From a virus (lineage: Duplodnaviria; Heunggongvirae; Uroviricota; Caudoviricetes): a stretch of 30,256 nt of DNA. The DNA is taken from positions 1-30,256 of the IMG/VR virus record IMGVR_UViG_2563366827_000006. One strand, 5' to 3'. This document shows positions 8,101 through 30,256 of this stretch, piece by piece. The stretch's first letter is position 1; each line of letters opens with the position of its first letter. Made by a program: the position numbers and the translations under genes. The notes beneath the pieces are model-generated. The model was not told where the DNA came from, did no database searches, and saw only the letters and a program-made list of their open reading frames with translations.

Positions 8101-8518
8101 GATTTAATAGCTGAACGACAAAAGTCTTGCGACCACAGTCACACAGACCTGAATACACGTCCTGTTTCTTCCACCCCCGCACAGGACTGGCGAGCATGAG
8201 GGACACCCCCGCGAACCATAAACGCGGTAAAAACCCGGTGTGCATCGTTTTTGATTATTCCCGCACACTCACGCAGAAGGAATTCCCCGTCGGGCTACGG
8301 TCATGGTTAATGCGGGAATACGGCGACGATACAGCGCAGCTAAAAGGGTAATGGACAGATAGAGCGGTTTATTTCATTCCACAGGATTCTGAGTGCCCCC
8401 CCTCCTCCAATAGGCTGAGCATCCACCTATATAGTTTTAATTTTCATCAATCCATTTAACTATCGTTTAATTGTTGTCACATAGGATTCTGCCGTTTTTA
8501 ACAATGCAGGATAATAAG

Positions 8519-8812
8519 ATGAAAAAAATGTTGTTTTCTGCCGCTCTGGCAATGCTTATTACAGGATGTGCTCAACAGACGTTTACTGTTGGAAACAAAC
8601 CTACAGCAGTAACACCAAAGGAAACCATCACCCATCATTTCTTCGTTTCGGGAATTGGGCAGAAGAAAACTGTCGATGCAGCAAAAATTTGTGGTGGTGC
8701 AGAAAATGTTGTTAAAACAGAAACCCAGCAAACATTCGTAAATGGATTGCTCGGTTTTATTACTTTAGGCATTTATACTCCGCTGGAAGCGCGTGTGTAT
8801 TGCTCACAATAA
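8519..8812 (+). CDS. bor: Bor lipoprotein (serum-resistance associated outer-membrane lipoprotein)
   Basis: MKKMLFSAALAMLITGCAQQTFTVGNKPTAVTPKETITHHFFVSGIGQKK… matches lambda Bor (97 aa) with lipobox LITGC; ATG at 8519 inside ORF 8471-8812; opposite strand to lysis genes as in lambda. Confidence 0.9.
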   Translation: MKKMLFSAALAMLITGCAQQTFTVGNKPTAVTPKETITHHFFVSGIGQKKTVDAAKICGGAENVVKTETQQTFVNGLLGFITLGIYTPLEARVYCSQ

Positions 8813-10602: not shown

Positions 10603-11700
10603 ATGAAAAAATTAACAGTGGCAATTTCTGCTGTAGCTGCATCAGTACTGATGGCGATGTCTGCTCAGGCAGCTGAAATTTATAATAAAGACAGTAACAA
10701 GCTGGATCTGTACGGGAAAGTTAATGCCAAGCACTACTTTTCCTCTAACGATGCAGATGATGGTGATACTACTTATGTTCGTCTGGGCTTCAAAGGCGAA
10801 ACCCAAATCAACGATCAGCTGACTGGTTTCGGTCAGTGGGAATATGAATTCAAAGGCAACCGCGCTGAATCTCAAGGTTCCTCCAAAGACAAAACCCGTC
10901 TTGCATTTGCAGGCCTGAAATTCGGTGACTACGGCTCAATCGATTACGGCCGTAACTACGGTGTAGCATACGACATCGGTGCGTGGACTGACGTTCTGCC
11001 AGAATTCGGTGGCGATACCTGGACCCAAACAGATGTGTTCATGACTGGTCGTACCACTGGTGTTGCAACCTATCGTAACAACGACTTCTTTGGTCTGGTT
11101 GATGGTCTGAACTTTGCTGCTCAGTACCAAGGCAAAAACGATCGTAGCGATTTCGATAACTACACCGAAGGTAACGGTGATGGCTTCGGTTTCTCTGCTA
11201 CCTATGAATACGAAGGATTCGGTATCGGTGCAACTTATGCGAAATCTGATCGTACCGACACTCAAGTTAATGCAGGGAAAGTTCTTCCTGAAGTATTTGC
11301 TTCCGGTAAAAATGCAGAAGTTTGGGCCGCAGGTCTGAAATATGACGCTAACAACATTTACCTGGCCACTACCTATTCTGAAACCCAGAATATGACTGTA
11401 TTTGCTGATCACTTCGTTGCTAATAAAGCTCAAAACTTCGAAGCTGTTGCACAATATCAGTTCGATTTCGGTCTGCGTCCGTCCGTTGCTTACCTGCAAT
11501 CTAAAGGTAAGGATCTTGGAGTATGGGGCGATCAGGACTTAGTCAAATATGTTGATGTAGGTGCAACCTATTACTTCAACAAAAATATGTCTACTTTCGT
11601 TGATTACAAAATCAACCTGCTTGACAAAAATGACTTCACTAAAGCACTCGGTGTAAGCACTGATGACATCGTTGCTGTAGGTCTGGTTTACCAGTTCTAA
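10603..11700 (+). CDS. nmpC: Outer-membrane general porin, OmpC/OmpF family (prophage-encoded NmpC/Lc type)
   Basis: 365-aa ORF with signal peptide [23 protein letters not shown] and C-terminal …VAVGLVYQF; matches remembered NmpC/Lc; sits between Q and S on the opposite strand as in DLP12 and PA-2. Confidence 0.9.
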
Positions 11701-13308: not shown

Positions 13309-13378
13309 TACTCTGATCTTACCCAGCAATAGTGGACACGCGGCTAAGTGAGTAAACTCTCAGTCAGAGGTGACTCAC

Positions 13379-13678
13379 ATGACAAAAACAGTATCAACCA
13401 GTAAAAAACCCCGTAAACAGCATTCGCCTGAATTTCGCAGTGAAGCCCTGAAGCTTGCTGAACGCATCGGTGTTACTGCCGCAGCCCGTGAACTCAGCCT
13501 GTATGAATCACAGCTCTACAACTGGCGCAGTAAACAGCAAAATCAGCAGACGTCTTCTGAACGTGAACTGGAGATGTCTACCGAGATTGCACGTCTCAAA
13601 CGCCAGCTGGCAGAACGGGATGAAGAGCTGGCTATCCTCCAAAAGGCCGCGACATACTTCGCGAAGCGCCTGAAATGA
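13379..13678 (+). CDS. insE: IS3 transposase OrfA (InsE)
   Basis: [54 protein letters not shown]… matches IS3 OrfA; ATG at 13379. Confidence 0.92.
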
Positions 13679-14541
13679 AGTATGTCTTTATTGAAAAACA
13701 TCAGGCTGAGTTCAGCATCAAAGCAATGTGCCGCGTGCTCCGGGTGGCCCGCAGCGGCTGGTATACGTGGTGTCAGCGGCGGACAAGGATAAGCACGCGT
13801 CAGCAGTTCCGCCAACACTGCGACAGCGTTGTCCTCGCGGCTTTTACCCGGTCAAAACAGCGTTACGGTGCCCCACGCCTGACGGATGAACTGCGTGCTC
13901 AGGGTTACCCCTTTAACGTAAAAACCGTGGCGGCAAGCCTGCGCCGTCAGGGACTGAGGGCAAAGGCCTCCCGGAAGTTCAGCCCGGTCAGCTACCGCGC
14001 ACACGGCCTGCCTGTGTCAGAAAATCTGTTGGAGCAGGATTTTTACGCCAGTGGCCCGAACCAGAAGTGGGCAGGAGACATCACGTACTTACGTACAGAT
14101 GAAGGCTGGCTGTATCTGGCAGTGGTCATTGACCTGTGGTCACGTGCCGTTATTGGCTGGTCAATGTCGCCACGCATGACGGCGCAACTGGCCTGCGATG
14201 CCCTGCAGATGGCGCTGTGGCGGCGTAAGAGGCCCCGGAACGTTATCGTTCACACGGACCGTGGAGGCCAGTACTGTTCAGCAGATTATCAGGCGCAACT
14301 GAAGCGGCATAATCTGCGTGGAAGTATGAGCGCAAAAGGTTGCTGCTACGATAATGCCTGCGTGGAAAGCTTCTTTCATTCGCTGAAAGTGGAATGTATC
14401 CATGGAGAACACTTTATCAGCCGGGAAATAATGCGGGCAACGGTGTTTAATTATATCGAATGTGATTACAATCGGTGGCGGCGGCACAGTTGGTGTGGCG
14501 GCCTCAGTCCGGAACAATTTGAAAACAAGAACCTCGCTTAG
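13675..14541 (+). CDS. insF: IS3 transposase OrfB (InsF; DDE catalytic domain, normally expressed as OrfAB by -1 frameshift)
   Basis: 288-aa [39 protein letters not shown]… matches IS3 OrfB; overlaps orfA 3' end. Confidence 0.92.
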
Positions 14542-14568
14542 GCCTGTGTCCATATTACGTGGGTAGGA

Positions 14569-15024
14569 TCACGCCTCCTGCTTGTCGCGCAGCAGCTGGA
14601 ACTCGCAGCTCTGCGGAATAGTCAGGTGGCAGCCAATATTCACCGCCCAGGCTTCAACCTTACACAGGAAGACATACATCTCTCCGGTATCAAGATCGGA
14701 GGTATGGCGTAACGACTGGATAGTAGTGATTTCGCCGGTTACGACATCAACCAGGTCCTTGGTTTCATAACCGAGGTATGTGTGTTTGAGAGCATCTTTT
14801 ACCCATGCTGAAGTAGCGAACGATTTCCCCCTGCTGATGAGGTATTCACTGATTTCGCTGTACCACATGTGGCTGAGTGCATTCTGGGAAAGACTGCGTT
14901 TCTCACGCCACGGTTTAAGCACCATGCGAAAGCATTTTCCGTTCTCCAGATAAGGCTGGATCTGCTGGCCGATAGCGGTGAAGTTACCGCGATGCAATTT
15001 GATGCCATCTTGTAGGAGGTTCAC
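14569..15024 (-). CDS. ybcN: YbcN-like protein (DLP12 YbcN family)
   Basis: 151-aa [58 protein letters not shown]… matches remembered YbcN; its TGA stop is formed by the terminal 3 nt of IS3. Confidence 0.8.
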
Positions 15025-15215
15025 GATTCACCTCCGCAGAGGTCAAACGCTGGATGCAAAAAATCGCAGGTACATTTCTGCATCTGTGAAGGGAGAAGAG
15101 AGTTTGGATTGTATGTGCGCATAAACGTCCCCGTTTAGCGCAGAAGTCACCGGAGTTGTTCAGGCTCCGGTGACTTAATTATGACAAGTTGATTATGGAA
15201 AATCAAAGCTTGTCA

Positions 15216-15761
15216 TCAGAACAACGAATAATTTAAAAACTCTATAATTTCTAAGATTTTTTCACTTATCGCTGGAATGAAACGTGAAGCAAAATAGAGC
15301 CCCAAAAAAACCAATATTGAGTACGAAACCGTGATAGCGACTCTGTATTTTTTCTCGCCTCGCTTCACTCTCTCCCACTCAGTTTTAAGAACACTGGAAC
15401 TATATTCAAAATACTGTCTGACCACATCTGTAATGTTAGATGAGCGATCCATTTTTAAAATGTAATCCTCAATGATTTTCAAAAGCAGAGACTCTTCATT
15501 AGTTAAGTTTTTACTGGATAACCTAAGCTTCACTTTTGCGGAAAGAAAATAAATTTTTCCAGCCACCTCAGGGAGCTTCTCAGGCGGAGTCGTGCGTAAT
15601 TGTAAAAAGTTCTCCATCAATTCGGCTAACTCTTCCCTTAAACCATCTATCCACGCTTGCCGAAACTCAGATGTTTTATTCTCCTTAGTGATAACAAGCC
15701 CCACTCCAGCTGCAGCTGCGGCAATAATTGCGGCGACAACTGAGGCTATCCCTGCATCCAT
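15216..15761 (-). CDS. Hypothetical membrane protein with hydrophobic segments at both termini (unknown function, moron cassette)
   Basis: 181-aa ORF; N-terminal GIASVVAAIIAAAAAGVGLVI and C-terminal AITVSYSILVFLGLYFASRFI hydrophobic stretches; AT-rich coding sequence; no recognised homolog. Confidence 0.55.
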   Translation of the reverse strand: MDAGIASVVAAIIAAAAAGVGLVITKENKTSEFRQAWIDGLREELAELMENFLQLRTTPPEKLPEVAGKIYFLSAKVKLRLSSKNLTNEESLLLKIIEDYILKMDRSSNITDVVRQYFEYSSSVLKTEWERVKRGEKKYRVAITVSYSILVFLGLYFASRFIPAISEKILEIIEFLNYSLF

Positions 15762-15900
15762 AAATTACCCCTCAAAACAATATGAATATGAATATGATTC
15801 GATGTCTTCAGCAATTGAAAACTAAAACTCCCTGTAATGTCACATCTGCCCATGAATGTGTTTTCTTCATACAGCTTTGCTGCAATATCTAAATCAGACA

Positions 15901-16227
15901 TTAGTCAGCGGTTCTCCCGCGCCAGCGTTTGTTACTTTCTGATATTCTTTCTGTATCAACGGATTCAACCTCACCTTCTGAAAACCTAACTGCATTAGCT
16001 TTAGCCATTGCCTTCCTAGCATCTTCTTCCGCCTGGCTAAAATGCACCTTCTTTCTTCCCTTGAAACTACCAACGCGAATTTTGGAAGAGGCCTGCGTCT
16101 TGTACTTGCTAATCCGTAATTGTGCCGCCAAATGGGCTTTTGCCTCGGTGCGGTTCGCTGGCTTCTTCTTTACTAATTCAAGGTCTAAATGGTACTGCTG
16201 CTCAGCTCTTAGTTTCTTCGGTTTCAT
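15901..16227 (-). CDS. Hypothetical small basic protein (Lys/Arg-rich; unknown function, moron cassette)
   Basis: ORF 15901-16245 begins with TTG; first ATG at 16227 gives MKPKKLRAEQQYHLDLELVKKKPANRTEAKAH… (108 aa); same strand and cassette as neighbours. Confidence 0.5.
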   Translation of the reverse strand: MKPKKLRAEQQYHLDLELVKKKPANRTEAKAHLAAQLRISKYKTQASSKIRVGSFKGRKKVHFSQAEEDARKAMAKANAVRFSEGEVESVDTERISESNKRWRGRTAD

Positions 16228-16598
16228 AATATCACTCTCAAACAAAGTCCATTTATCATAGAATAAAAGCCCTCTAAGAGCTTTGATTTGTATCTATGCT
16301 AATTCCCGTCAATTTGTTCTTCATTTTACCTCCAGCTGTTGTGCTGCTGCAGTGGCATTCAATAGTTTTCCTTCTAAGCATCCTACAAAATCGGTGACGA
16401 GTCATGACCAGTTCACGTAGTGCAATGAAATTACTGCAATCTATTATGACGCAAATGCGTCAATACTCGAATCAACTGATCATCCTGCCACGACTGAAAT
16501 CTCAAATAGGCCGTTTCTCAAGTAAGAGATTTTGAATGCATTATTGGCTACTGAAATAAAAAACCCAGCGCCAACTGGGTTCATATGAAATTTTTTTG

Positions 16599-17093
16599 TC
16601 ATTTCCAATTGCAAGACTGTGAAATTTTTTCCACAACCTTATCAATCTCAGACAAGTCAAACTCAACTACTTGCATAGTTGATCCATAAGGTTCAAACCC
16701 AAAAATAGCTTTTTTATGCTTAGCCAAGGTCTTTATAAATTGTATTGGTTGTGGAGCAAATGCAGAATCACCGCCTTCCCCACCTCCCCAAACACTCTTG
16801 ACCGGCTTTCCGCCATCTAACCGCACTGTAATCCTTGGGTTGTCCGAACCCATATAATCATTGAATGATAAATAGGCATCTGTTTTGTTATCACTACAAC
16901 GCAACACCAGTGAAGTTGCACGATCAGTACCTGCTTTGTTATATGAATCTGGTGATAAATTAAGAGCCACAAAGTCAGTCTGGTCAGTCATTTTATTTAT
17001 CTCAGACTTTGTTATCCACGGCCCTAACTTCTCTACACCAGCATTTGCTGTAAACGAGGCACTTATGACAAAGGCTAAAATAAATTTTCTCAT
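16599..17093 (-). CDS. Hypothetical secreted or periplasmic protein with signal peptide (unknown function, moron cassette)
   Basis: 164-aa ORF MRKFILAFVISASFTANA|GVEKL… has a typical Sec signal peptide with ANA cleavage motif; strong RBS AAGGAG 8 nt upstream; AT-rich. Confidence 0.65.
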   Translation of the reverse strand: MRKFILAFVISASFTANAGVEKLGPWITKSEINKMTDQTDFVALNLSPDSYNKAGTDRATSLVLRCSDNKTDAYLSFNDYMGSDNPRITVRLDGGKPVKSVWGGGEGGDSAFAPQPIQFIKTLAKHKKAIFGFEPYGSTMQVVEFDLSEIDKVVEKISQSCNWK

Positions 17094-17239
17094 AACCCTA
17101 TCTCCTTGGATTTAAAGAACTAAATATTATCAAGTCTCTTGCCACTAGAAAACCCACTTTATTTCCAAACTCTGACGGCATTCCTGAAAATCCGCTTCAT
17201 ACTCACTTGCCCCGCCCTATCATCCTGAGTAGCTAACCG

Positions 17240-17413
17240 TTAAACAAACGTTCGCCAGACCTTACCATCAATGACCAGGATTCCTGCCCGCGCCATTTTT
17301 GCCGCAGCCTGATTTATGCTGGTTAATGTCACACCTGTTGTCGCAGCAACGTCCGGCGCACAGAAGCTCTTGTGCGTCTCCAGATAATGAATAATTGCCT
17401 CTTTGCCCGTCAT
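17240..17413 (-). pseudogene. ren: Truncated ren (first ~52 codons homologous to lambda Ren, then divergent and prematurely terminated at 57 aa)
   Basis: Minus-strand translation from ATG 17413 (ATGA overlap with P stop): MTGKEAIIHYLETHKSFCAPDVAATTGVTLTSINQAAAKMARAGILVIDGKVWRTFV*; lambda Ren is 96 aa. Confidence 0.7.
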
Positions 17414-18111
17414 ACAGTTGCTCCTTTCAGTCCGAACTTCGCTTTGATTTCTGCGATCTTCGCCAGAGCCTGTGCACGATTTAGAGGTCTACCGCCCATG
17501 ACAGGAAGTTGTTTTACTGGTTCAGGTATCGCCTCACCACGGTTAATTCGCGCGGTCATACAAGTCAGTTCATCGGCAGCCTTGCGCCGTAATTCCGCAT
17601 CAGTCAGCGCATTGGCCCGCATGTTCTGATACAGGTTGGTAACCAACCAGTAGTGCGCGTTTGATTTCCATGGATAAGACTCTGCATCCGGATACAGGCC
17701 ACGCTTCCGGCAATACTCGTAAACCATATCAACCAGCTCGCTGGCGTTTGGCAGCCCGGCAGTAACGGATGCTTCTTCCCGGCACCAGGCAACAAACTGC
17801 CCGGGTGATGGCAGGAATGGTCGATTCTGCCGACGGGCTACGCGCATTCCTGCGTTAACCTGTTCCATTGTGGTGATCCCGTTTTCCCGGAAAGCCAGAA
17901 CCCACTGGCGGCGGATTTCGTTCAGTTCGTTCTGGTCCCGGTTAGCCAGGCTCGCCGGGAAAGTTGCCAGTAACTGGCTGAACACACCATTGATGATCTG
18001 CGCTACCTGCTGTACCTGCGGCTTTTCGTCGTACTGTTCCGGCATGTTGTTGGCGATCCGACGCATCTGCTCACGGTCAAAGTTAATCATCTGTGCGGCG
18101 ATGTTTTTCAT
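17410..18111 (-). CDS. P: Replication protein P (DnaB helicase loader)
   Basis: 233-aa ORF MKNIAAQMINFDREQMRRIANNMPEQYDEKPQVQQVAQIINGVF… matches lambda P in length and sequence. Confidence 0.95.
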   Translation of the reverse strand: MKNIAAQMINFDREQMRRIANNMPEQYDEKPQVQQVAQIINGVFSQLLATFPASLANRDQNELNEIRRQWVLAFRENGITTMEQVNAGMRVARRQNRPFLPSPGQFVAWCREEASVTAGLPNASELVDMVYEYCRKRGLYPDAESYPWKSNAHYWLVTNLYQNMRANALTDAELRRKAADELTCMTARINRGEAIPEPVKQLPVMGGRPLNRAQALAKIAEIKAKFGLKGATV

Positions 18112-19123: not shown

Positions 19124-19669
19124 TCATATTGCCCCCAGCATGGTGGTGACCATCGCCATCAATGGACCAGCCAGGTCCGGGTCCACACGAAACATCGACA
19201 CAATGCCTTCACTCATCTCCTTCAGTTTCTGGTGGCGTGGTGCGTTGAGAATGACAGCCTGTTTTGCCTCACTGAGTTCCTTTTCCATTTCAGCCAGCCG
19301 AGCCATGAAGCTATCCTGCTCAACCAAGTGGCCGCGATATTCCAGCGGTAGTACCGCCAGAATTGCCGGGGTCAATTCACGCACGTTATTTCGGTATTTT
19401 TCAGAATCGAATTTGTTATCGAGGAAGCGGAACAGCTTCTGGCGTGCACGGCTGACATCATCAGGGAAATCGATGGTGCCGCCGCCCTGTGCTCGATACT
19501 CATTCACAATGAGTGCGGCAACGACATCCTGATTATCTTCAGCCGACCAGGCGCGGACGGCATCACGGATTTTTTCGTGGCCTGGCACCTGTTTTGTTTG
19601 AGAACGATTTATCACCGCTGTCGGGCTAAATCCGCTAGTCTGTTGGTATGTAAGTGGTTGCATAGTCAT
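19124..19669 (-). CDS. YdaT-family protein occupying the cII position (putative CII-like lysogeny regulator)
   Basis: 181-aa ORF; segment …VNEYRAQGGGTIDFPDD…LTPAILAVLPLEYRGHL… resembles remembered Rac YdaT; sits between cro-like gene and O. Confidence 0.55.
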   Translation of the reverse strand: MTMQPLTYQQTSGFSPTAVINRSQTKQVPGHEKIRDAVRAWSAEDNQDVVAALIVNEYRAQGGGTIDFPDDVSRARQKLFRFLDNKFDSEKYRNNVRELTPAILAVLPLEYRGHLVEQDSFMARLAEMEKELSEAKQAVILNAPRHQKLKEMSEGIVSMFRVDPDLAGPLMAMVTTMLGAI

Positions 19670-19693
19670 TGCCTTATCAGTTAACGCCGCAGT

Positions 19694-19921
19694 TTAGGCG
19701 GCAGAATTACTCGCGTTAAACAATGGTGCGAGGTCGGGACGAATATCTGCTGGTTTAATCTTTCCACCAGTGGCTGAGACAATTTTCATTACATAGCGGG
19801 CATCAATTCCGCCACCGTGTAGCCAACGCCAAACAGTGGGTTGGGCTACACCGCATAGATCTGCCAGTCGTTTTTGACTACCTGTAATACTGATTGCGAG
19901 TTGAATGGTTTGATTTGTCAT
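19694..19921 (-). CDS. Cro-like HTH repressor (YdaS/Cro family)
   Basis: ORF 19694-19927 begins with TTG; ATG at 19921 with AGGA RBS gives 75 aa MTNQTIQLAISITGSQKRLADLCGVAQPTVWRWLHGGG…; HTH motif; divergent from CI-like gene. Confidence 0.75.
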   Translation of the reverse strand: MTNQTIQLAISITGSQKRLADLCGVAQPTVWRWLHGGGIDARYVMKIVSATGGKIKPADIRPDLAPLFNASNSAA

Positions 19922-20031
19922 TATCAATTCCTATTGGTATTGCAATGAACAGATAATAGCAATGCGTATTAACCCATTCAATAGCAAAACGTGTTTTGAC
20001 CATCAATACGCAAGCGTATAAATTAAAACTT
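19922..20031. promoter_or_regulatory. Immunity control region between divergent cro-like and cI-like genes (expected pR/pRM and oR operators)
   Basis: 110-bp AT-rich intergenic region with repeated AATAGCAA(T/A) motifs (~19955-19965, ~19981-19989) and inverted repeat TACGCAAGCGTA at 20007-20018. Confidence 0.6.
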
Positions 20032-20724
20032 ATGAAAAAAGAAACTCTTGCTGATCGCTTAAACCTAGCGATGGAACAATCTGGAATGTCTCAAGGCGCT
20101 CTTGCAAAGGCGTCTGGCGTAGCTCAACCCACAATCTGGAGACTGACAAGCGGCAACGCGCGCGGCTCAACAAAAATTGTTGAAATAGCTAATGCATTGG
20201 GTGTTCGAACAGAGTGGCTCTCATCAGGCATAGGCCCGATGAGAAATGACGGTCAACAATCAGGAAAGCCTGCTGTCAACCATTCCAAATACTTCAAGAT
20301 TGACGTTCTTGATATAGAAGTCAGTGCTGGGCCGGGTGTCATCAACCGTGAGTTTGTAGAAGTCCTACGCTCGGTTGAGTACTCGTTTGACGATGCTCGT
20401 CACATGTTCGATGGCAGGAAGGCAGAAAATATCCGCATCATTAACGTACGCGGTGACAGCATGTCAGGAACGATCGAACCAGGTGATCTTTTGTTCGTTG
20501 ATATCACTGTTAAATCTTTCGACGGTGATGGTATCTATGCGTTTCTGTACGACGACACAGCCCATGTAAAGCGCCTGCAAATGATGAAGGATAAGCTGCT
20601 GGTTATCTCTGATAACAAGAGCTACTCACCGTGGGACCCGATCGAGAAAGACGAGATGAACCGGGTGTTTATCTTCGGTAAGGTTATTGGGAGCATGCCG
20701 CAGACATATAGGAAGCATGGTTAA
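20032..20724 (+). CDS. CI-like prophage repressor (N-terminal XRE-type HTH, C-terminal LexA-like S24 autopeptidase domain)
   Basis: ORF 19996-20724 begins with TTG; ATG at 20032 gives MKKETLADRLNLAMEQSGMSQGALAKASGVAQPTIWRL…; Ala-Gly site in EVSAGPG, Ser in RGDSMSGT and Lys in HVKRL form the S24 motifs. Confidence 0.88.
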   Translation: MKKETLADRLNLAMEQSGMSQGALAKASGVAQPTIWRLTSGNARGSTKIVEIANALGVRTEWLSSGIGPMRNDGQQSGKPAVNHSKYFKIDVLDIEVSAGPGVINREFVEVLRSVEYSFDDARHMFDGRKAENIRIINVRGDSMSGTIEPGDLLFVDITVKSFDGDGIYAFLYDDTAHVKRLQMMKDKLLVISDNKSYSPWDPIEKDEMNRVFIFGKVIGSMPQTYRKHG

Positions 20725-20846
20725 AGTGAGGCTAAAAAACAGTTACAGCAATAGGCCTGTTGTTTTTCTTTAAACACGCAGTGTTAAACCGCTCTTTGAG
20801 ATGCGGAGTAATGAGATGGAAGACTTGAATCACATAAGGGTTAGTG

Positions 20847-21596
20847 ATGGAGTGCGTAGCGAGCAGCAATAGTGCAATACCTAATGTCGTTGAGGTAATA
20901 CGTCGCATCAATGAAGGTTCCACTCAGCCATTTCTTTGCAAATGTGATGATGGGCAGTTGTATGTTTTGAAGTCAAAACCATCAATGCCCCCGAAAAATC
21001 TCTTAGCTGAGTTCATTTCGGCGTGTTTGGCTAATGATATCGGCCTTCCTTTACCTGACTTTAAAATCGTATTTGTGCCAGAGGAACTTATAGAGTACTC
21101 ACCTGATCTGCAGCAACAAATTTGTACAGGATATGCCTTTGCTTCATTGTTCATTGACGGTGCAATAGCGTTAACGTTTACGCAGTCAAGAAACGAAACG
21201 ATCATCCCAGTCGAACAGCAAAAATTAATCTATGTTTTTGATAAATGGATATTAAATGCAGACAGAACGCTTACTGACAAAGGTGGAAACGTTAACATCC
21301 TTTATGACATCAGTAACGATAAGTATTATCTGATTGACCATAATCTCTCATTTGATCAGAATGCTGGACCTGAAGATTTTTCTGTGCACGTGTACGGCCC
21401 TGGTAACCGCAAATGGCAATATGATTTAGTGGATCGCGTAGAGTACCGCCAGAGGGTCGTTAACAGTTTACACAAGCTTCCTGCTATCCTTGACGAAATT
21501 CCAGAAGAGTGGATAGTAGATGAGGAGTTTTTACCTTTTGTCTGCACTACGCTAGACAAAGGTGATTGTGATGAATTTTGGAGCGCAATAGAATGA
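20847..21596 (+). CDS. Hypothetical protein with HipA-like atypical kinase-fold motifs (gene 1 of two-gene cassette in rexAB position)
   Basis: ~249 aa from ATG 20847 (AAGGG RBS at 20836-20840; ORF track starts 20844); motif YVFDKWILNADRTLTDKGGNVNIL…YLIDHNLSF resembles HipA-type catalytic loop; kinase assignment is pattern-based, not searched. Confidence 0.55.
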   Translation: MECVASSNSAIPNVVEVIRRINEGSTQPFLCKCDDGQLYVLKSKPSMPPKNLLAEFISACLANDIGLPLPDFKIVFVPEELIEYSPDLQQQICTGYAFASLFIDGAIALTFTQSRNETIIPVEQQKLIYVFDKWILNADRTLTDKGGNVNILYDISNDKYYLIDHNLSFDQNAGPEDFSVHVYGPGNRKWQYDLVDRVEYRQRVVNSLHKLPAILDEIPEEWIVDEEFLPFVCTTLDKGDCDEFWSAIE

Positions 21597-22420
21597 CAAC
21601 TCCATGCCTATATAGCATCGTTCGCTATGCGCCTTATGCGGAGACTGAAGAGTTCGCAAACATAGGCGTACTTCTGTGCGCGCCAAAAGAAAATTACTTT
21701 GATTTCCAGCTCACAAAGCGAAATGACTCTCGTGTAAAGAATTTTTTCCATGATGATTGTATTTTCCCTGTAGCAAAAGACTCAATACAAAGAGAACTAC
21801 AGTTCGCAAAAATGCATGCGACCCAGATTGTTGGACATCAACAACTTGCACAATTCTTCAGATATTTTACAAACAAAAAAGAATCAATTTTTCAGTTCAG
21901 TTCTACGAGAGTGATTCTCAGCGAAAACCCAAAAGAAGAGCTGGCCCGCATTTACAATAAATATGTAAACCACTCTGACTACACAAAAGAGCGCCGTGAA
22001 GATGTTCTAGCCAGAGAGCTAAAACGAAGTATCGATAGAATAGATGGATTGAAGAACGTCTTCAAACAAGCAACCATTGATGGGTATTTCGCAAAGTTCT
22101 CAATGCCATTGGTCGCCAAGAAGCATGACAGGATCCAATGTGCCATCAAACCTCTGGCATTCACTCAAGCTGAACCAGGAAAAATGATGGAGCATAGTGA
22201 TACTTGGGTGATGAGAATAACTCGAGCAGCAGAAGAAAACCTGCTTTCACTTGATGACATTTTATTCACAATTGAAACTCCTGAATCACCAAACTCAGGC
22301 CAAAGCAAAGTTATTGACATCATAAAGAGAACTATGGATGCTAAGAAAATAAATCATATACCTGCATCCAACCACAAAGAAACTATTGATTTTGCAAAAA
22401 AAATACTTCCCCAAGTTTAA
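21593..22420 (+). CDS. DUF3037-like protein (gene 2 of two-gene cassette, translationally coupled)
   Basis: ATG at 21593 overlaps gene-1 stop (ATGA); N-terminus MTTPCLYSIVRYAPYAETEEFANIGVLL matches my recollection of the DUF3037 N-terminal signature; ~275 aa. Confidence 0.55.
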   Translation: MTTPCLYSIVRYAPYAETEEFANIGVLLCAPKENYFDFQLTKRNDSRVKNFFHDDCIFPVAKDSIQRELQFAKMHATQIVGHQQLAQFFRYFTNKKESIFQFSSTRVILSENPKEELARIYNKYVNHSDYTKERREDVLARELKRSIDRIDGLKNVFKQATIDGYFAKFSMPLVAKKHDRIQCAIKPLAFTQAEPGKMMEHSDTWVMRITRAAEENLLSLDDILFTIETPESPNSGQSKVIDIIKRTMDAKKINHIPASNHKETIDFAKKILPQV

Positions 22421-22455
22421 AATTTATTTTTGTATGTGATATTCCTTATTAATAA

Positions 22456-26740: not shown

Positions 26741-26952
26741 TACTTACTGCACAATAATACACAAAATTGCGTAAATTTTTTGCATGGATTTTAGCTCTTT
26801 CAGCCGACGTTTAAGGGGTAAATAGCATTTCCTAAAAGCAACTGCACCAACCCAACAGAATGGGCTACCGCTTACGTTGAGAGCAAAAAAGTGTATAGCA
26901 GCAATGAACAGCATCCTCGCACTGACGGGGATTTCTTTTATATGGGGATAAT

Positions 26953-27753
26953 ATGACTATCCACTTTCACGGCAGCCCAATATGGGGGGATGAGCATGCC
27001 CCTACAGATATGCTGATTAAAGCCCTTTACCGTGATGGTGGGGCTTTTGTTTCATTTGCCAGACCAGAGCAGATGAAAAAGATTGCCATGTTCCCTTGTG
27101 ATATACGCCTTGATAACGGTGCTTTTAGCGACTGGATGAAAGCATTAAAGAAAGGCACTCCGGTAGACTGGAGTAAGAGACGAGCAAAATTCTACGACTT
27201 TGTTGGGAAGTGGTTCAGCAGAATTGAATGGTTTCTTATACCTGACGTTATCGAAGGGACAGAGGCAGAAAACGACGAGCAGATTGAGTTGGTTCCTGAT
27301 TGGCTAAAATCAAAAGCGGTTCCGGTCTGGCATACCGACGAATCAATTGAACGTCTTTTACGCCTTTCTGGCAAATTTGAATGGGTGGCGATTGGATGCT
27401 GCGGCCCACACAGGAACATACGCTCTAAATGGTGGGAACAGAGAATGGATGAAGTTTTCACTGAGCTTTATATCAATCGTAATTTGAAAGTGAAAATTCA
27501 TGGTCTTCGAATGCTCGACGTGAGAGTTCTTGGTATGTATCCGTTCGCCAGTGCGGATTCTACTAATGTTGCTGTTAACGTACCGAAGACAGAGAAGCGA
27601 TTTCCTGAGATTACCGACAAACTGGCACGTACAGCTGTACTTCGCGCTGCTATTGAAAAGGTGCACCCGCCATCGATATCAGCATGGGTAGACAGAAAGA
27701 TGAGAGAGCCGGCGCAAGCCGGTTTTTTATTTGAATTCACCGACGCCGCTTAA
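26953..27753 (+). CDS. Hypothetical protein (266 aa); weak, unverified resemblance to TGT/DpdA-type transglycosylase motifs
   Basis: ORF with GGGGA RBS; motifs …IRLDNGAFSDW… and …HGLRMLDV… loosely recall TGT catalytic Asp motifs (…DSGGFQ…, …GMFD…); own AT-rich upstream region. Confidence 0.5.
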   Translation: MTIHFHGSPIWGDEHAPTDMLIKALYRDGGAFVSFARPEQMKKIAMFPCDIRLDNGAFSDWMKALKKGTPVDWSKRRAKFYDFVGKWFSRIEWFLIPDVIEGTEAENDEQIELVPDWLKSKAVPVWHTDESIERLLRLSGKFEWVAIGCCGPHRNIRSKWWEQRMDEVFTELYINRNLKVKIHGLRMLDVRVLGMYPFASADSTNVAVNVPKTEKRFPEITDKLARTAVLRAAIEKVHPPSISAWVDRKMREPAQAGFLFEFTDAA

Positions 27754-27810
27754 TGCGGATTTCTTTTATATGAACTCGCTACGGCGGGTTTTATTTTATG
27801 GAGACAAGAA

Positions 27811-28155
27811 ATGTCAGATTTGGCTATGAAGGTTTTGAAATGGCAATCGACCGGCGATGTCGGCATCAGTAGCGCAACTCTTGCCTCAATCGCATGTGGA
27901 CTGAAAAAGAATATCTATGGTCATCACTTCGGCGCTCCACATGACGCAGCAGATTTCAGACGATGCGTTGCACTTGTTGAGCAGATTCCAGAAATCAGAG
28001 ATTCATTCAACAAGGTTGCAAAGCGCGTTCCGGCATTCAAAGGAATCCTCAACGAATGGGATTCCCTCGTTGCTCTGTTGAAGTCTGAAATGAAGATACA
28101 CGGAAACAAAGCACCAGAGACTTACAGAAGAATCAGCGAGCTACGCAAGGACTAA
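27811..28155 (+). CDS. Hypothetical protein (114 aa), unknown function
   Basis: ORF MSDLAMKVLKWQSTGDVGISSATLASIACGLKKNIYGHHFGAPHDAADFRRC… with GGAG RBS 9 nt upstream; terminator follows. Confidence 0.55.
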   Translation: MSDLAMKVLKWQSTGDVGISSATLASIACGLKKNIYGHHFGAPHDAADFRRCVALVEQIPEIRDSFNKVAKRVPAFKGILNEWDSLVALLKSEMKIHGNKAPETYRRISELRKD

Positions 28156-28212
28156 CCCGCCTCACACTCGATGAGGCCTGTTCATTGCTCAATGATATCC
28201 AGACCTACCATC

Positions 28213-28236
28213 GCCGCATCAATGCGGTTTTTTATT
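28213..28236 (+). terminator. Rho-independent terminator (GCCGCA-tcaa-TGCGG followed by TTTTTTTATT)
   Basis: GC stem plus 7-T run downstream of the 114-aa gene. Confidence 0.7.
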
Positions 28237-28243
28237 GCCTGAT

Positions 28244-28259
28244 TTGCAGGTTCGATTCC
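28244..28259 (+). other. tRNA-Arg (argW) T-arm-like fragment TTGCAGGTTCGATTCC, not part of an intact tRNA gene
   Basis: 16/16 match to the T-stem/loop portion of argW as I remember it (…AATTGCAGGTTCGATTCCTGCAGGGGACACCA); sequence diverges immediately after. Confidence 0.5.
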
Positions 28260-28278
28260 CTATTTGGAGATAGCACTC

Positions 28279-28479
28279 ATGCAACACGAACTACAACCTG
28301 ATTCACTGGTTGATTTGAAATTCATCATGGCTGATACTGGCTTCGGTAAGACCTTCATCTATGACCGGATTAAGTCCGGCGACCTGCCTAAAGCCAAAGT
28401 TATCCACGGACGAGCAAGATGGTTATATCGTGACCATTGTGAATTCAAAAATAAGCTCTTAAGCCGCGCCAATGGGTAA
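28279..28479 (+). CDS. torI: TorI-like excisionase / recombination directionality factor (AlpA/Xis family winged-helix)
   Basis: ORF 28264-28479 begins with TTG; ATG at 28279 (GGAGA RBS) gives 66 aa MQHELQPDSLVDLKFIMADTGFGKTFIYDRIKSGDLPKAKVIHGRARWLYRDHCEFKNKLLSRANG, matching remembered KplE1 TorI; adjacent to an argW core repeat. Confidence 0.75.
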   Translation: MQHELQPDSLVDLKFIMADTGFGKTFIYDRIKSGDLPKAKVIHGRARWLYRDHCEFKNKLLSRANG

Positions 28480-28551
28480 AATAGCGGGTAAAATATTTTT
28501 CACATCTAAAAAATACCATTCCAATCAATCCCCTGCCGCGCCAAGTAGATG

Positions 28552-28567
28552 CCTGCAGGGGACACCA
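28552..28567 (+). other. attR: Prophage attachment-site core: 16-nt copy of the 3' end of tRNA-Arg argW (CCTGCAGGGGACACCA), prophage/host junction
   Basis: Exact match to the remembered last 16 nt of argW including discriminator and CCA; no upstream tRNA body, so it is a core repeat rather than a tRNA gene. Confidence 0.65.
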
Positions 28568-29008
28568 GATACCCTTCAAACGAAATCTACCTTCACCCCG
28601 TAAAAGATGGGTTTGGCAGCACACTTGCCTTATATCTACTCATTTTTACTGCAACAGGTTGAAATCTCAGCACTGTCAGAAAGCGCTGATGACTAAACAG
28701 CCCTGGGCCGGGCGATGTAACCATCACACAGAATCCTGATAGCGAAATATGGCGTGACTCGATACTTCACTCCGCAATGCATTCCTTGATGAATTCGCAG
28801 GACCGTGATACACGGGACAGGTCACTGAATGACGACAATGTCCTGGAAATCAGCGAACCGCGCATCTGAAGTACATTTGAGCGACTGTACCAGAACATGA
28901 ATGAGGCGTTTGGATTAGGCGATTATTAGCAGGGCTAAGCATTTTACTATTATTATTTTCCGGTTGAGGGATATAGAGCTATCGACAACAACCGGAAAAA
29001 GTTTACGT

Positions 29009-30256
29009 CTATATTGCTGAAGGTACAGGCGTTTCCATAACTATTTGCTCGCGTTTTTTACTCAAGAAGAAAATGCCAAATAGCAACATCAGGCAGACAA
29101 TACCCGAAATTGCGAAGAAAACTGTCTGGTAGCCTGCGTGGTCAAAGAGTATCCCAGTCGGCGTTGAAAGCAGCACAATCCCAAGCGAACTGGCAATTTG
29201 AAAACCAATCAGAAAGATCGTCGACGACAGGCGCTTATCAAAGTTTGCCACGCTGTATTTGAAGACGGATATGACACAAAGTGGAACCTCAATGGCATGT
29301 AACAACTTCACTAATGAAATAATCCAGGGGTTAACGAACAGCGCGCAGGAAAGGATACGCAACGCCATAATCACAACTCCGATAAGTAATGCATTTTTTG
29401 GCCCTACCCGATTCACAAAGAAAGGAATAATCGCCATGCACAGCGCTTCGAGTACCACCTGGAATGAGTTGAGATAACCATACAGGCGCGTTCCTACATC
29501 GTGTGATTCGAATAAACCTGCATAAAAGACAGGAAAAAGTTGTTGATCAAAAATGTTATAGAAAGACCACGTCCCCACAATAAATATGACGAAAACCCAG
29601 AAGTTTCGATCCTTGAAAACTGCGATAAAATCCTCTTTTTTTACCCCTCCCGCATCTGCCGCTACGCACTGGTGATCCTTATCTTTAAAACGCATGTTGA
29701 TCATCATAAATACAGCGCCAAATAGCGAGACCAACCAGAAGTTGATATGGGGACTGATACTAAAAAATATGCCGGCAAAGAACGCGCCAATAGCATAGCC
29801 AAAAGATCCCCAGGCGCGCGCTGTTCCATATTCGAAATGAAAATTTCGCGCCATTTTTTCGGTGAAGCTATCAAGCAAACCGCATCCCGCCAGATACCCC
29901 AAGCCAAAAAATAGCGCCCCCAGAATTAGACCTACAGAAAAATTGCTTTGCAGTAACGGTTCATAAACGTAAATCATAAACGGTCCGGTCAAGACCAGGA
30001 TGAAACTCATACACCAGATGAGCGGTTTCTTCAGACCGAGTTTATCCTGAACGATGCCGTAGAACATCATAAATAGAATGCTGGTAAACTGGTTGACCGA
30101 ATAAAGTGTACCTAATTCCGTCCCTGTCAACCCTAGATGTCCTTTCAGCCAAATAGCGTATAACGACCACCACAGCGACCAGGAAATAAAAAAGAGAAAT
30201 GAGTAACTGGATGCAAAACGATAGTACGCATTTCTGAATGGAATATTCAGTGCCAT
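29009..30256 (-). CDS. cscB: LacY-family oligosaccharide:H+ symporter, most likely sucrose permease CscB (host chromosomal gene)
   Basis: 415-aa ORF MALNIPFRNAYYRFASSYSFLFFISWSLWWSLYAIWLKGHLGL… with LacY-family motifs (DKLGLKK, FDQQ, GPKNALL, HAIEVP, FKY); start codon is the last 3 nt of the window. Confidence 0.8.
   Translation of the reverse strand: MALNIPFRNAYYRFASSYSFLFFISWSLWWSLYAIWLKGHLGLTGTELGTLYSVNQFTSILFMMFYGIVQDKLGLKKPLIWCMSFILVLTGPFMIYVYEPLLQSNFSVGLILGALFFGLGYLAGCGLLDSFTEKMARNFHFEYGTARAWGSFGYAIGAFFAGIFFSISPHINFWLVSLFGAVFMMINMRFKDKDHQCVAADAGGVKKEDFIAVFKDRNFWVFVIFIVGTWSFYNIFDQQLFPVFYAGLFESHDVGTRLYGYLNSFQVVLEALCMAIIPFFVNRVGPKNALLIGVVIMALRILSCALFVNPWIISLVKLLHAIEVPLCVISVFKYSVANFDKRLSSTIFLIGFQIASSLGIVLLSTPTGILFDHAGYQTVFFAISGIVCLMLLFGIFFLSKKREQIVMETPVPSAI

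Follow-up and report, generated by a model that had tools for sequence, protein, structure and literature searches.

The lambda morons bor and lom are located elsewhere than in the ren–nin region, and a described parallel in position is the cargo of DLP12, emrE-ybcK-ybcL-ybcM placed ahead of ylcH-ybcN. Here we analysed the ren-to-ninB slot of a lambda/DLP12-type prophage of Escherichia coli contained in a DNA stretch of 30,256 nucleotides (IMG/VR record IMGVR_UViG_2563366827_000006, positions 1 to 30,256; referred to below as the window). The genes of interest all lie on the minus strand, and three open reading frames (ORFs), in coding order ORF-C, ORF-B and ORF-A, fill the slot. An initial annotation, made from the sequence without database searches, had treated them as one three-gene cassette. 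Our comparison indicates instead that the slot (approximately 15212-17160) is very probably a patchwork of three unrelated, separately acquired single-gene modules, because homology breakpoints, the independent occurrence of each gene, a transcription terminator and a gene remnant of the DNA polymerase III theta subunit separate them. The features on which this reading is built are the following.

16599 to 17093, minus strand: ORF-C, exported protein of 164 aa; signal peptide, two invariant cysteines
16561 to 16582, minus strand: intrinsic terminator directly after ORF-C, a 9-bp stem then UUUUUUAUUU (-12.2 kcal/mol, z -2.36)
16228 to 16560, minus strand: AT-rich non-coding spacer with two junctions and a gene fragment (from blastn maps; GC 0.38)
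15901 to 16227, minus strand: ORF-B, basic protein of 108 aa (phrog_14068), or of 114 aa if started at an upstream TTG
15864 to 15901, minus strand: 5' remnant, about 12 codons, of a gene for DNA polymerase III theta (HolE/Hot-like); the blastn match to Citrobacter/Enterobacter prophages stops at 15864
15216 to 15761, minus strand: ORF-A, a 181-aa predicted inner-membrane protein with a first transmembrane helix (TM1, residues ~5-24), a four-helix bundle and a second transmembrane helix (TM2, residues ~140-162)

The three same-strand ORFs of the initial annotation are present at these coordinates, and RefSeq carries the same three coding sequences in 15 complete E. coli genomes. Their described AT-richness was borne out by a composition profile, with a GC content of 0.39-0.46 as against 0.51-0.54 in P and ybcN. 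Given as overall GC and GC at third codon positions (GC3), the values are 0.394/0.327 for ORF-C, 0.459/0.459 for ORF-B and 0.396/0.401 for ORF-A; those of the flanking genes are 0.538/0.585 (P) and 0.509/0.618 (ybcN). None of the three is a chance ORF; they are genuine genes, since purifying selection acts on each of them, as seen from the ratios of nonsynonymous to synonymous change (pN/pS, dN/dS) or from differences that are synonymous only; dS was saturated in the deeper comparisons. The proteins were scanned against Pfam, NCBIfam, PHROGs and PADLOC (PADLOC-DB v2). A literature search on the three WP accessions, on the ren/ninB hot-spot and on PF11319/IalB in prophages found nothing specific.

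When the slot was compared by blastn with fetched phage and prophage loci, it resolved into separate blocks of homology.

17500 to 16521, coding strand: P, ren pseudogene, ORF-C and terminator; phage IdasGreatGrand, 96% (blastn)
17500 to 16449, coding strand: the same P/ren/ORF-C/terminator block; E. coli prophages with ORF-C and without ORF-A and ORF-B, 99%
16351 to 15864, coding strand: ORF-B, about 120 bp upstream of it and the first 37 bp of the next gene; Citrobacter/Enterobacter prophages, 83%
15761 to 14568, coding strand: ORF-A, from its exact ATG, through ninB; Enterobacter prophage, 75%
15211 to 14568, coding strand: orf33 and ninB; phage 82, 94%

The two junctions within the spacer are marked by the end of the 99% homology to the ORF-C-only prophages at 16449 and by the start of the Citrobacter-type homology at 16351. 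The spacer also holds an 88-bp fragment (16432-16519), 77% identical to the 3' ends of the otherwise unrelated genes CDS0042 of IdasGreatGrand and CDS0075 of phage Turner, which looks like the fossil of an earlier cargo. An Rfam scan of 14500-17600 at E<=1 returned no RNA family, which rules out a known RNA in the 371-bp gap between ORF-C and ORF-B, and a 43-aa ORF at 16274-16405 found no support as a gene. The terminator after ORF-C is the only one of its kind, as no convincing terminator directly follows ORF-B or ORF-A. A consensus-only promoter scan of the slot found no sigma-70-like site upstream of any of the three ORFs, and its total of 4 sites compares with 5.5 expected from shuffled sequence.

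The distribution of the three genes differs as well. In a set of 5,426 complete E. coli genomes, 84 have ORF-C, 24 have ORF-B and 15 have ORF-A. All three are found together in just 15 genomes, the same 15 that have ORF-A, and these are 99-100% identical to one another and represent one near-identical recombinant lineage. The commoner layout in E. coli is P, ren pseudogene, ORF-C, approximately 940 bp without an annotated gene, orf33 and ybcN; in such ORF-C-only prophages the counterpart sub-slot consists of 698 bp riddled with stop codons. Across IdasGreatGrand, Turner, the ORF-C-only prophages of E. coli, and prophages of Klebsiella and Enterobacter, the content of the slot varies and the P/ren and orf33/ninB flanks are conserved. 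The region is an instance of ordinary lambdoid mosaicism, a moron slot at a recombination hot-spot.

The small Lys/Arg-rich protein of the initial annotation, ORF-B, is indeed strongly basic (pI 10.3; 27 Lys and Arg among 108 residues) and shows a dN/dS of about 0.10 against its relatives. It has no domain match in Pfam or NCBIfam, is confined to Enterobacterales and has an almost invariant C-terminus (...FSEGEVESVDTxRISESNKRWRGRTAD), whose last part, ...NKRWRGRTAD, is an invariant motif. In phage loci with ORF-B homologues of 60-85% identity, a theta gene adjoins in all ten of the ten; the pair was seen in Citrobacter, Enterobacter and E. coli prophages, joined by a TAATG stop/start overlap. 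Fifteen of the 24 E. coli copies of ORF-B are at least 99% identical, and the other nine are 82-84% variants with an intact theta next door. In the window, the neighbour of ORF-B is not an intact theta gene (PF06440): the homology ends 37 bp into it and the frame enters unrelated sequence. The remnant reads MSDLDIAAK... as compared with MSDWNIAAKPQEDRDKVNVDL... in intact relatives, and identity is gone after about 40 bp. A 51-codon ORF at 15746-15901 was rejected as a gene, being this remnant fused to unrelated sequence.

ORF-B is the upstream half of a nin-region pair of ORF-B and theta, orphaned in the window. Its strict start/stop coupling to the phage theta suggests that it is a replication-associated accessory, and this unstudied candidate may be worth following up. 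A chromosomal homologue, 74% identical to ORF-B, was observed in Kluyvera and relatives (four loci) and is the one exception to the abutting theta. It lies in an islet within the neighbourhood of yebY, a lipid A acyltransferase-family gene (PF03279) and rsmF, followed by ORFs of 112 and 108 aa; in two of the four loci the host holE is found about 2.6 kb from the homologue.

ORF-A has the hydrophobic segments at both ends that the initial annotation described, with stretches at residues ~3-24 and ~140-166, and is under purifying selection (pN 0.163 and pS 0.718 against diverged relatives). It gave no Pfam, NCBIfam, PADLOC or convincing PHROG match. An exhaustive profile search recovered 4,798 cluster representatives (50% identity), 2,382 of them below 1e-10 and 795 below 1e-30. 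Almost all members are 180-230 aa long and match end to end; they are spread over Proteobacteria, Acidobacteriota, Nitrospira, Verrucomicrobiota, Myxococcales and Bacteroidota. At a mean identity of about 34%, the alignment retains invariant K26, E27, K29, S31-Q35, W37, R42, W129, V132, K133, G135 and E136. ORF-A has two conserved juxtamembrane motifs, KExKTSEFRQxW and EWxRVKxGE; the invariant motifs of the family are KExKxSEFRQxW and WxxVKxGE.

The structure model of ORF-A (predicted local distance difference test, pLDDT, 92.5) runs from TM1 into a long helix, through two short helices and along a second long helix into TM2. In 79 of 79 family sequences Lys and Arg are concentrated on the bundle side (mean 7.8 versus 1.1), from which, by the positive-inside rule, an N-out/C-out topology with a cytoplasmic bundle is predicted. 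The bundle would thus be tethered in the cytoplasm by a transmembrane helix at each end. No output domain was found in ORF-A, which ends about 20 residues past TM2, and the extensions of ten longer relatives (265-326 aa) contain no Pfam domain. A sequence search of the PDB with the family profile gave nothing meaningful (syntaxin at E 0.3), and ORF-A had no match in the BFVD viral structure library at E<=1e-3. The size of the family, its sharply conserved motifs and the confident model may make it worth following up.

One may ask if ORF-A is the functionally important cargo of the slot, that is, a new stand-alone anti-phage membrane effector acting in abortive infection or superinfection exclusion. 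It occupies the same pre-ninB slot in E. coli, Enterobacter and Klebsiella prophages; in the latter two it stands alone directly ahead of ninB, or ahead of theta and then ninB. Its single-gene membrane layout and strongly conserved juxtamembrane motifs resemble those of known single-gene exclusion proteins, and some distant homologues adjoin integrases or, in Shewanella, a Gabija-like pair of an OLD-TOPRIM ATPase and a UvrD helicase. Elsewhere, however, ORF-A is a solitary chromosomal gene in several phyla, and most of its 80 genomic contexts are heterogeneous, with housekeeping neighbours. No conserved partner emerged, as no neighbour cluster recurs in more than 4 of the 80 loci and no Pfam family is shared by more than 2 of 127 immediate neighbours, integrase and defence-type ATPase domains each being found in 2. 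The contexts range from integrase-adjacent islets through the single Gabija-like neighbourhood to plain metabolic loci; the Gabija-like neighbour was set aside as anecdotal, since the 80 loci gave no conserved partner.

The missing PADLOC match and the missing viral structural analogue in BFVD also argue against a defence effector, and a family so large and taxonomically broad fits a general role in membrane physiology at least as well. We therefore consider the effector reading of ORF-A unlikely. A more elaborate version, which we hold to be decidedly unlikely, would make the ORF-A family a stand-alone 'inside-out sensor' repeatedly captured by lambdoid phages, a new single-protein membrane effector that might, for instance, detect a phage cue in the cytoplasm and remodel the membrane or make it permeable; this would be a new class of abortive-infection or exclusion protein, with ORF-C separately representing a phage-borne branch of the VasI/IalB fold engaged in envelope protection. 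We prefer to see module A as a phage-borne copy from a very large bacterial family of solitary inner-membrane proteins, a solitary gene borrowed by phages for which an anti-phage role is possible but not indicated; having no partner gene, it would act alone or with unlinked host factors.

For ORF-C, the Sec signal peptide noted earlier can be read directly from the sequence: MRKFILAFVISASFTANA|GVEK contains an A-x-A cleavage motif and no lipobox, and the AlphaFold model is disordered (pLDDT below 50) only at residues 1-17. The earlier impression that none of the three proteins resembles a recognisable one does not hold here, as ORF-C matches the Pfam family VasI (PF11319) and bears the RefSeq name TagO. 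The Pfam match passes marginally (26.7 bits, E 5.3e-6; gathering cut-off, 26.5) and covers only profile positions 78-184 of 184; all close homologues carry a precomputed PF11319 match. The NCBIfam equivalog model for VasI (TIGR03360, VI_minor_1) fails with 14.4 bits against a cut-off of 124.2, and in PHROGs the protein belongs to PHROG 1848, whose function is unknown. An alignment of 25 sequences has 44 invariant columns, including C66, C161 and a GFEPYG motif.

The AlphaFold model, built on a shallow alignment, is a beta-sandwich with two helices (pLDDT 78.6, predicted template modelling score 0.74), and its predicted fold is structurally similar to IalB (PF06776; PDB 3DTD). Sequence searches did not bring out this relationship: hmmscan gave no Pfam IalB match for ORF-C at E<=1, and a PDB search with the family profile gave no match. 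ORF-C would be exported by the Sec route and form, in the periplasm, a beta-sandwich of the VasI/TagO-IalB fold class that is probably disulfide-bonded. With low confidence, and as the least supported step of our interpretation, we infer that it might serve as a soluble binding or blocking module acting alone in the lysogen envelope, in lysogenic conversion or exclusion.

ORF-C is also found without the other two genes. It stands alone next to the same ren pseudogene in IdasGreatGrand, whose copy differs by synonymous changes only, and in about 69 of the 84 E. coli genomes with ORF-C. Klebsiella prophages very commonly carry a 55%-identical homologue, without ORF-A or ORF-B; there its place is a tail-region slot flanked by tail-assembly genes and the tape-measure gene. 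In one of the 15 three-ORF genomes, E. coli X14-3 (NZ_CP084055.1), an IS1A insertion sequence (IS1) interrupts the slot and the ORF-C match is shortened to 441 of 495 bases; loss of ORF-C is therefore tolerated in at least one lineage. The whole lambdoid region with O, P, ren pseudogene, ORF-C, ybcN and Q was also observed on the circular 43,337-bp 'plasmid' pOHT76-1_1 of E. coli SZQ1 (NZ_CP174001.1), which, instead of a conventional plasmid, is probably a phage-plasmid or a phage genome that was excised or circularised.

The RefSeq name invites the idea that ORF-C is a true TagO/VasI accessory, modulating the host's type VI secretion system (T6SS) or protecting the lysogen from T6SS attack. 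The bare pass of PF11319 and its presence in all close homologues speak for such a role, and the periplasm, the site of action of many T6SS effectors and immunity proteins, would suit it. The wide miss of the TIGR03360 equivalog and the alignment of only the C-terminal 107 of 184 Pfam positions speak against it. In the contexts inspected, all of them prophage nin or tail regions, no T6SS gene was found within 3.5-15 kb, depending on the locus. A review on accessory factors of the T6SS from 2026 (PMC13584744) lists the function of TagO/VasI itself as 'Unknown', as does another source (PMC6653060), so the name predicts no mechanism. A T6SS role for ORF-C is consequently very unlikely. Because the function of VasI/TagO is unknown and no T6SS gene lies nearby, TagO is here a family label without mechanistic content, and the annotation 'T6SS-associated protein TagO' should not be taken to show that this prophage has a part in T6SS biology.

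The cassette reading, in which the three ORFs would work together as one functional unit for surface exclusion, abortive infection or lysogenic conversion, draws on their contiguity on one strand, on the purifying selection common to all three and on their joint conservation at 99-100% in 15 complete E. coli genomes, which are of bovine, human, pig, mouse, deer, poultry, frog, crayfish and wastewater origin. These genomes, however, belong to a single near-identical lineage, and the co-occurrence counts as one event. Joint presence in divergent genomes was not found; outside this lineage the genes occur separately, each without the others in other phages and genomes. Within the slot, the ORFs belong to separate homology blocks with breakpoints in between: a strong terminator and a spacer of about 315 bp bearing a gene remnant intervene between ORF-C and ORF-B, and a truncated theta gene between ORF-B and ORF-A. 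PADLOC-DB v2 gave no match for ORF-A or ORF-C and a spurious Cas4 match only for ORF-B (E 0.012, 13.8 bits). A joint cassette is thus highly improbable. What survives of the initial interpretation is that of accessory cargo of foreign composition in a variable DLP12/lambda-type slot; the coherent set does not, and the logic of a 'membrane + periplasmic + basic protein' combination has no comparative support. To assign an exclusion, abortive-infection or conversion role to each gene singly would be speculation.

That the slot is decaying junk holding functionless leftovers in a defective prophage is extremely improbable: the ren pseudogene, truncated theta gene and 88-bp fragment, the stop-riddled 698 bp of ORF-C-only prophages, the IS3 element next door in the window and the IS1 that breaks the region and shortens ORF-C in X14-3 would fit it, but 14 of 15 genomes keep the three ORFs intact, and the ORFs are under strong purifying selection relative to their relatives and have conserved motifs and confident folds that support real proteins.

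The patchwork of separately acquired modules may have arisen as follows. Three modules would have been stacked in the ren-to-ninB slot by recombination at different times. Module C, which has the form of a classic moron-like unit made of a Shine-Dalgarno sequence, a gene and an intrinsic terminator, would be the oldest and is the most widespread of the three in E. coli. The recombination that brought in module A would have destroyed theta and left ORF-B an orphan. All three modules share the orientation of the early-right (PR) operon and, by analogy with lambda biology, N-antiterminated transcription would be expected to read through them in lytic growth; nothing points to cooperation among them. 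The main value of the analysis is corrective, in that it advises against further work on the region as a system of three components. The slot offers a clean example of ren–ninB cargo build-up by successive illegitimate or short-homology recombination, with diagnostic scars in the form of the ren pseudogene, the truncated theta gene and the 88-bp gene fragment.

The limits of the slot also needed revision. Its boundary features are listed below.

17161 to 17413, minus strand: ren pseudogene (Ren translation compared with phage Turner; RefSeq; phrog_142; blastn)
15021 to 15211, minus strand: conserved lambdoid backbone, 93-94% identical to phage 82 (X92588)
15178 to 15206, minus strand: promoter-like site upstream of ybcN/ninB (promoter scan match TTGATT-17-CATAAT)
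15144 to 15176, minus strand: inverted repeat upstream of ybcN/ninB
15021 to 15122, minus strand: orf33/ylcH (phage 82 annotation)
14569 to 15024, minus strand: ybcN/ninB, 151 aa, the backbone gene bounding the slot downstream (Pfam NinB, phrog_72, RefSeq ybcN)

A truncated ren had been taken to mark a recombination junction. The 57-codon ORF at 17240-17413 is closed by an in-frame TAA at codon 58, but ren-like sequence carries on in the same frame with a deletion of about 13 codons and ends at ~17160 when compared with the intact Ren of Turner (RLATQDDRAGQVS in the window, RFATREEREGKVS in Turner). RefSeq labels the gene 'protein ren, frameshifted; internal stop', it has a Ren-like match to phrog_142 (5e-20), and DNA homology to Turner, whose ren is intact, reaches 17169. 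Because in-frame ren-like sequence and Turner homology run past the TAA to 17169, ren is a decayed nonsense-plus-deletion pseudogene that was not truncated at a junction. The actual junction lies at lower window coordinates, approximately 75 bp downstream of where it had been placed. At the other end, positions 15025-15211 had been counted as cargo; they turn out to be backbone, 93-94% identical to the orf33, promoter and inverted repeat of phage 82. The phage 82 entry annotates this counterpart as orf33, -35/-10 signals and a 'possible regulator-binding site' ahead of orf151/ninB.

The prophage of strain EC77 (NZ_CP196708) is 100% identical to a 2.5-kb query around the slot. Its annotated order on the coding strand is replication protein O, P, ren pseudogene, 'type VI secretion system-associated protein TagO', two hypothetical proteins, a 33-aa hypothetical protein, ybcN, ninE, ybcO, rusA, ylcG and quuD. 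In the window, an IS3-family element (13312-14567, plus strand; orfA 13370-13678, orfB 13675-14541) sits exactly at the ybcN stop and ninE start and is missing from the otherwise collinear EC77 prophage. Since this element is oriented opposite to the nin operon, read-through to ninE-ybcO-rusA-ylcG-Q is probably blocked, which would leave this prophage copy defective for late gene expression. Three parts of the window (19665-20272, 20725-22454 and 26942-30256) had no megablast match to the EC77 prophage, their flanks being 96-99% identical; judging from this alignment, the two prophages carry different modules in the immunity region and at the integrase-side end.

Other cargo was observed elsewhere in the window. 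An overlapping gene pair (20844-21596 and 21578-22420, plus strand) has a rexAB-like position beside an S24/helix-turn-helix repressor (19996-20724) and codes for a HipA-like kinase (PF20613, E 1e-76) and a DUF3037 protein (PF11236, E 8e-24). The pair matches A and B of the PADLOC candidate defence system PDC-M66 (E 6e-15 and 4e-16) and is a better defence candidate than the ren–ybcN slot; EC77 has a different pair at this position, DUF6932 and a hypothetical protein. There are also two classical lysogenic-conversion morons, a Bor lipoprotein homologue (8471-8812, plus strand; PF06291, E 2e-30) and an OmpC-like porin (10603-11700, plus strand; PF00267, E 2e-156) between Q and the lysis genes.

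ORF-C matches PF11319 of VasI/TagO over a C-terminal region of about 108 residues, and in both a signal peptide is combined with a small beta-rich domain in the periplasm, but ORF-C is phage-borne, fails the equivalog model and has no T6SS linkage in the contexts examined; to IalB its sequence identity is 9-10%. In the model, ORF-A has the TM1, four-helix bundle (4HB), TM2 fold of the 4HB sensors QseE, NarQ/NarX, TorS and 4HB_MCP, although generic helical bundles score nearly as high in structural comparison. Unlike the periplasmic bundles of histidine kinases and chemoreceptors, that of ORF-A would be cytoplasmic (79/79 sequences), and the protein has no HAMP, kinase or MCP (methyl-accepting chemotaxis protein) output domain and no Pfam sensor-domain match; a NarQ/MCP-type sensor was consequently rejected, the topology being reversed and the output domain missing. 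ORF-B is followed in related prophages by phage theta homologues (HolE family, PF06440; Hot of P1), of which about 12 codons are left in the window. The compact gene-plus-terminator layout of lambdoid morons is found only in ORF-C, and ORF-B differs from them as half of a nin-region pair. The slot as a whole nevertheless resembles lambdoid morons in its foreign base composition (GC3 of 0.33-0.46 for the slot ORFs, 0.59-0.62 for P and ninB), in the placement of cargo between conserved backbone genes and in a content that varies between near-identical phages; in phage Turner, the slot holds a QacE/EmrE-type gene together with further genes.

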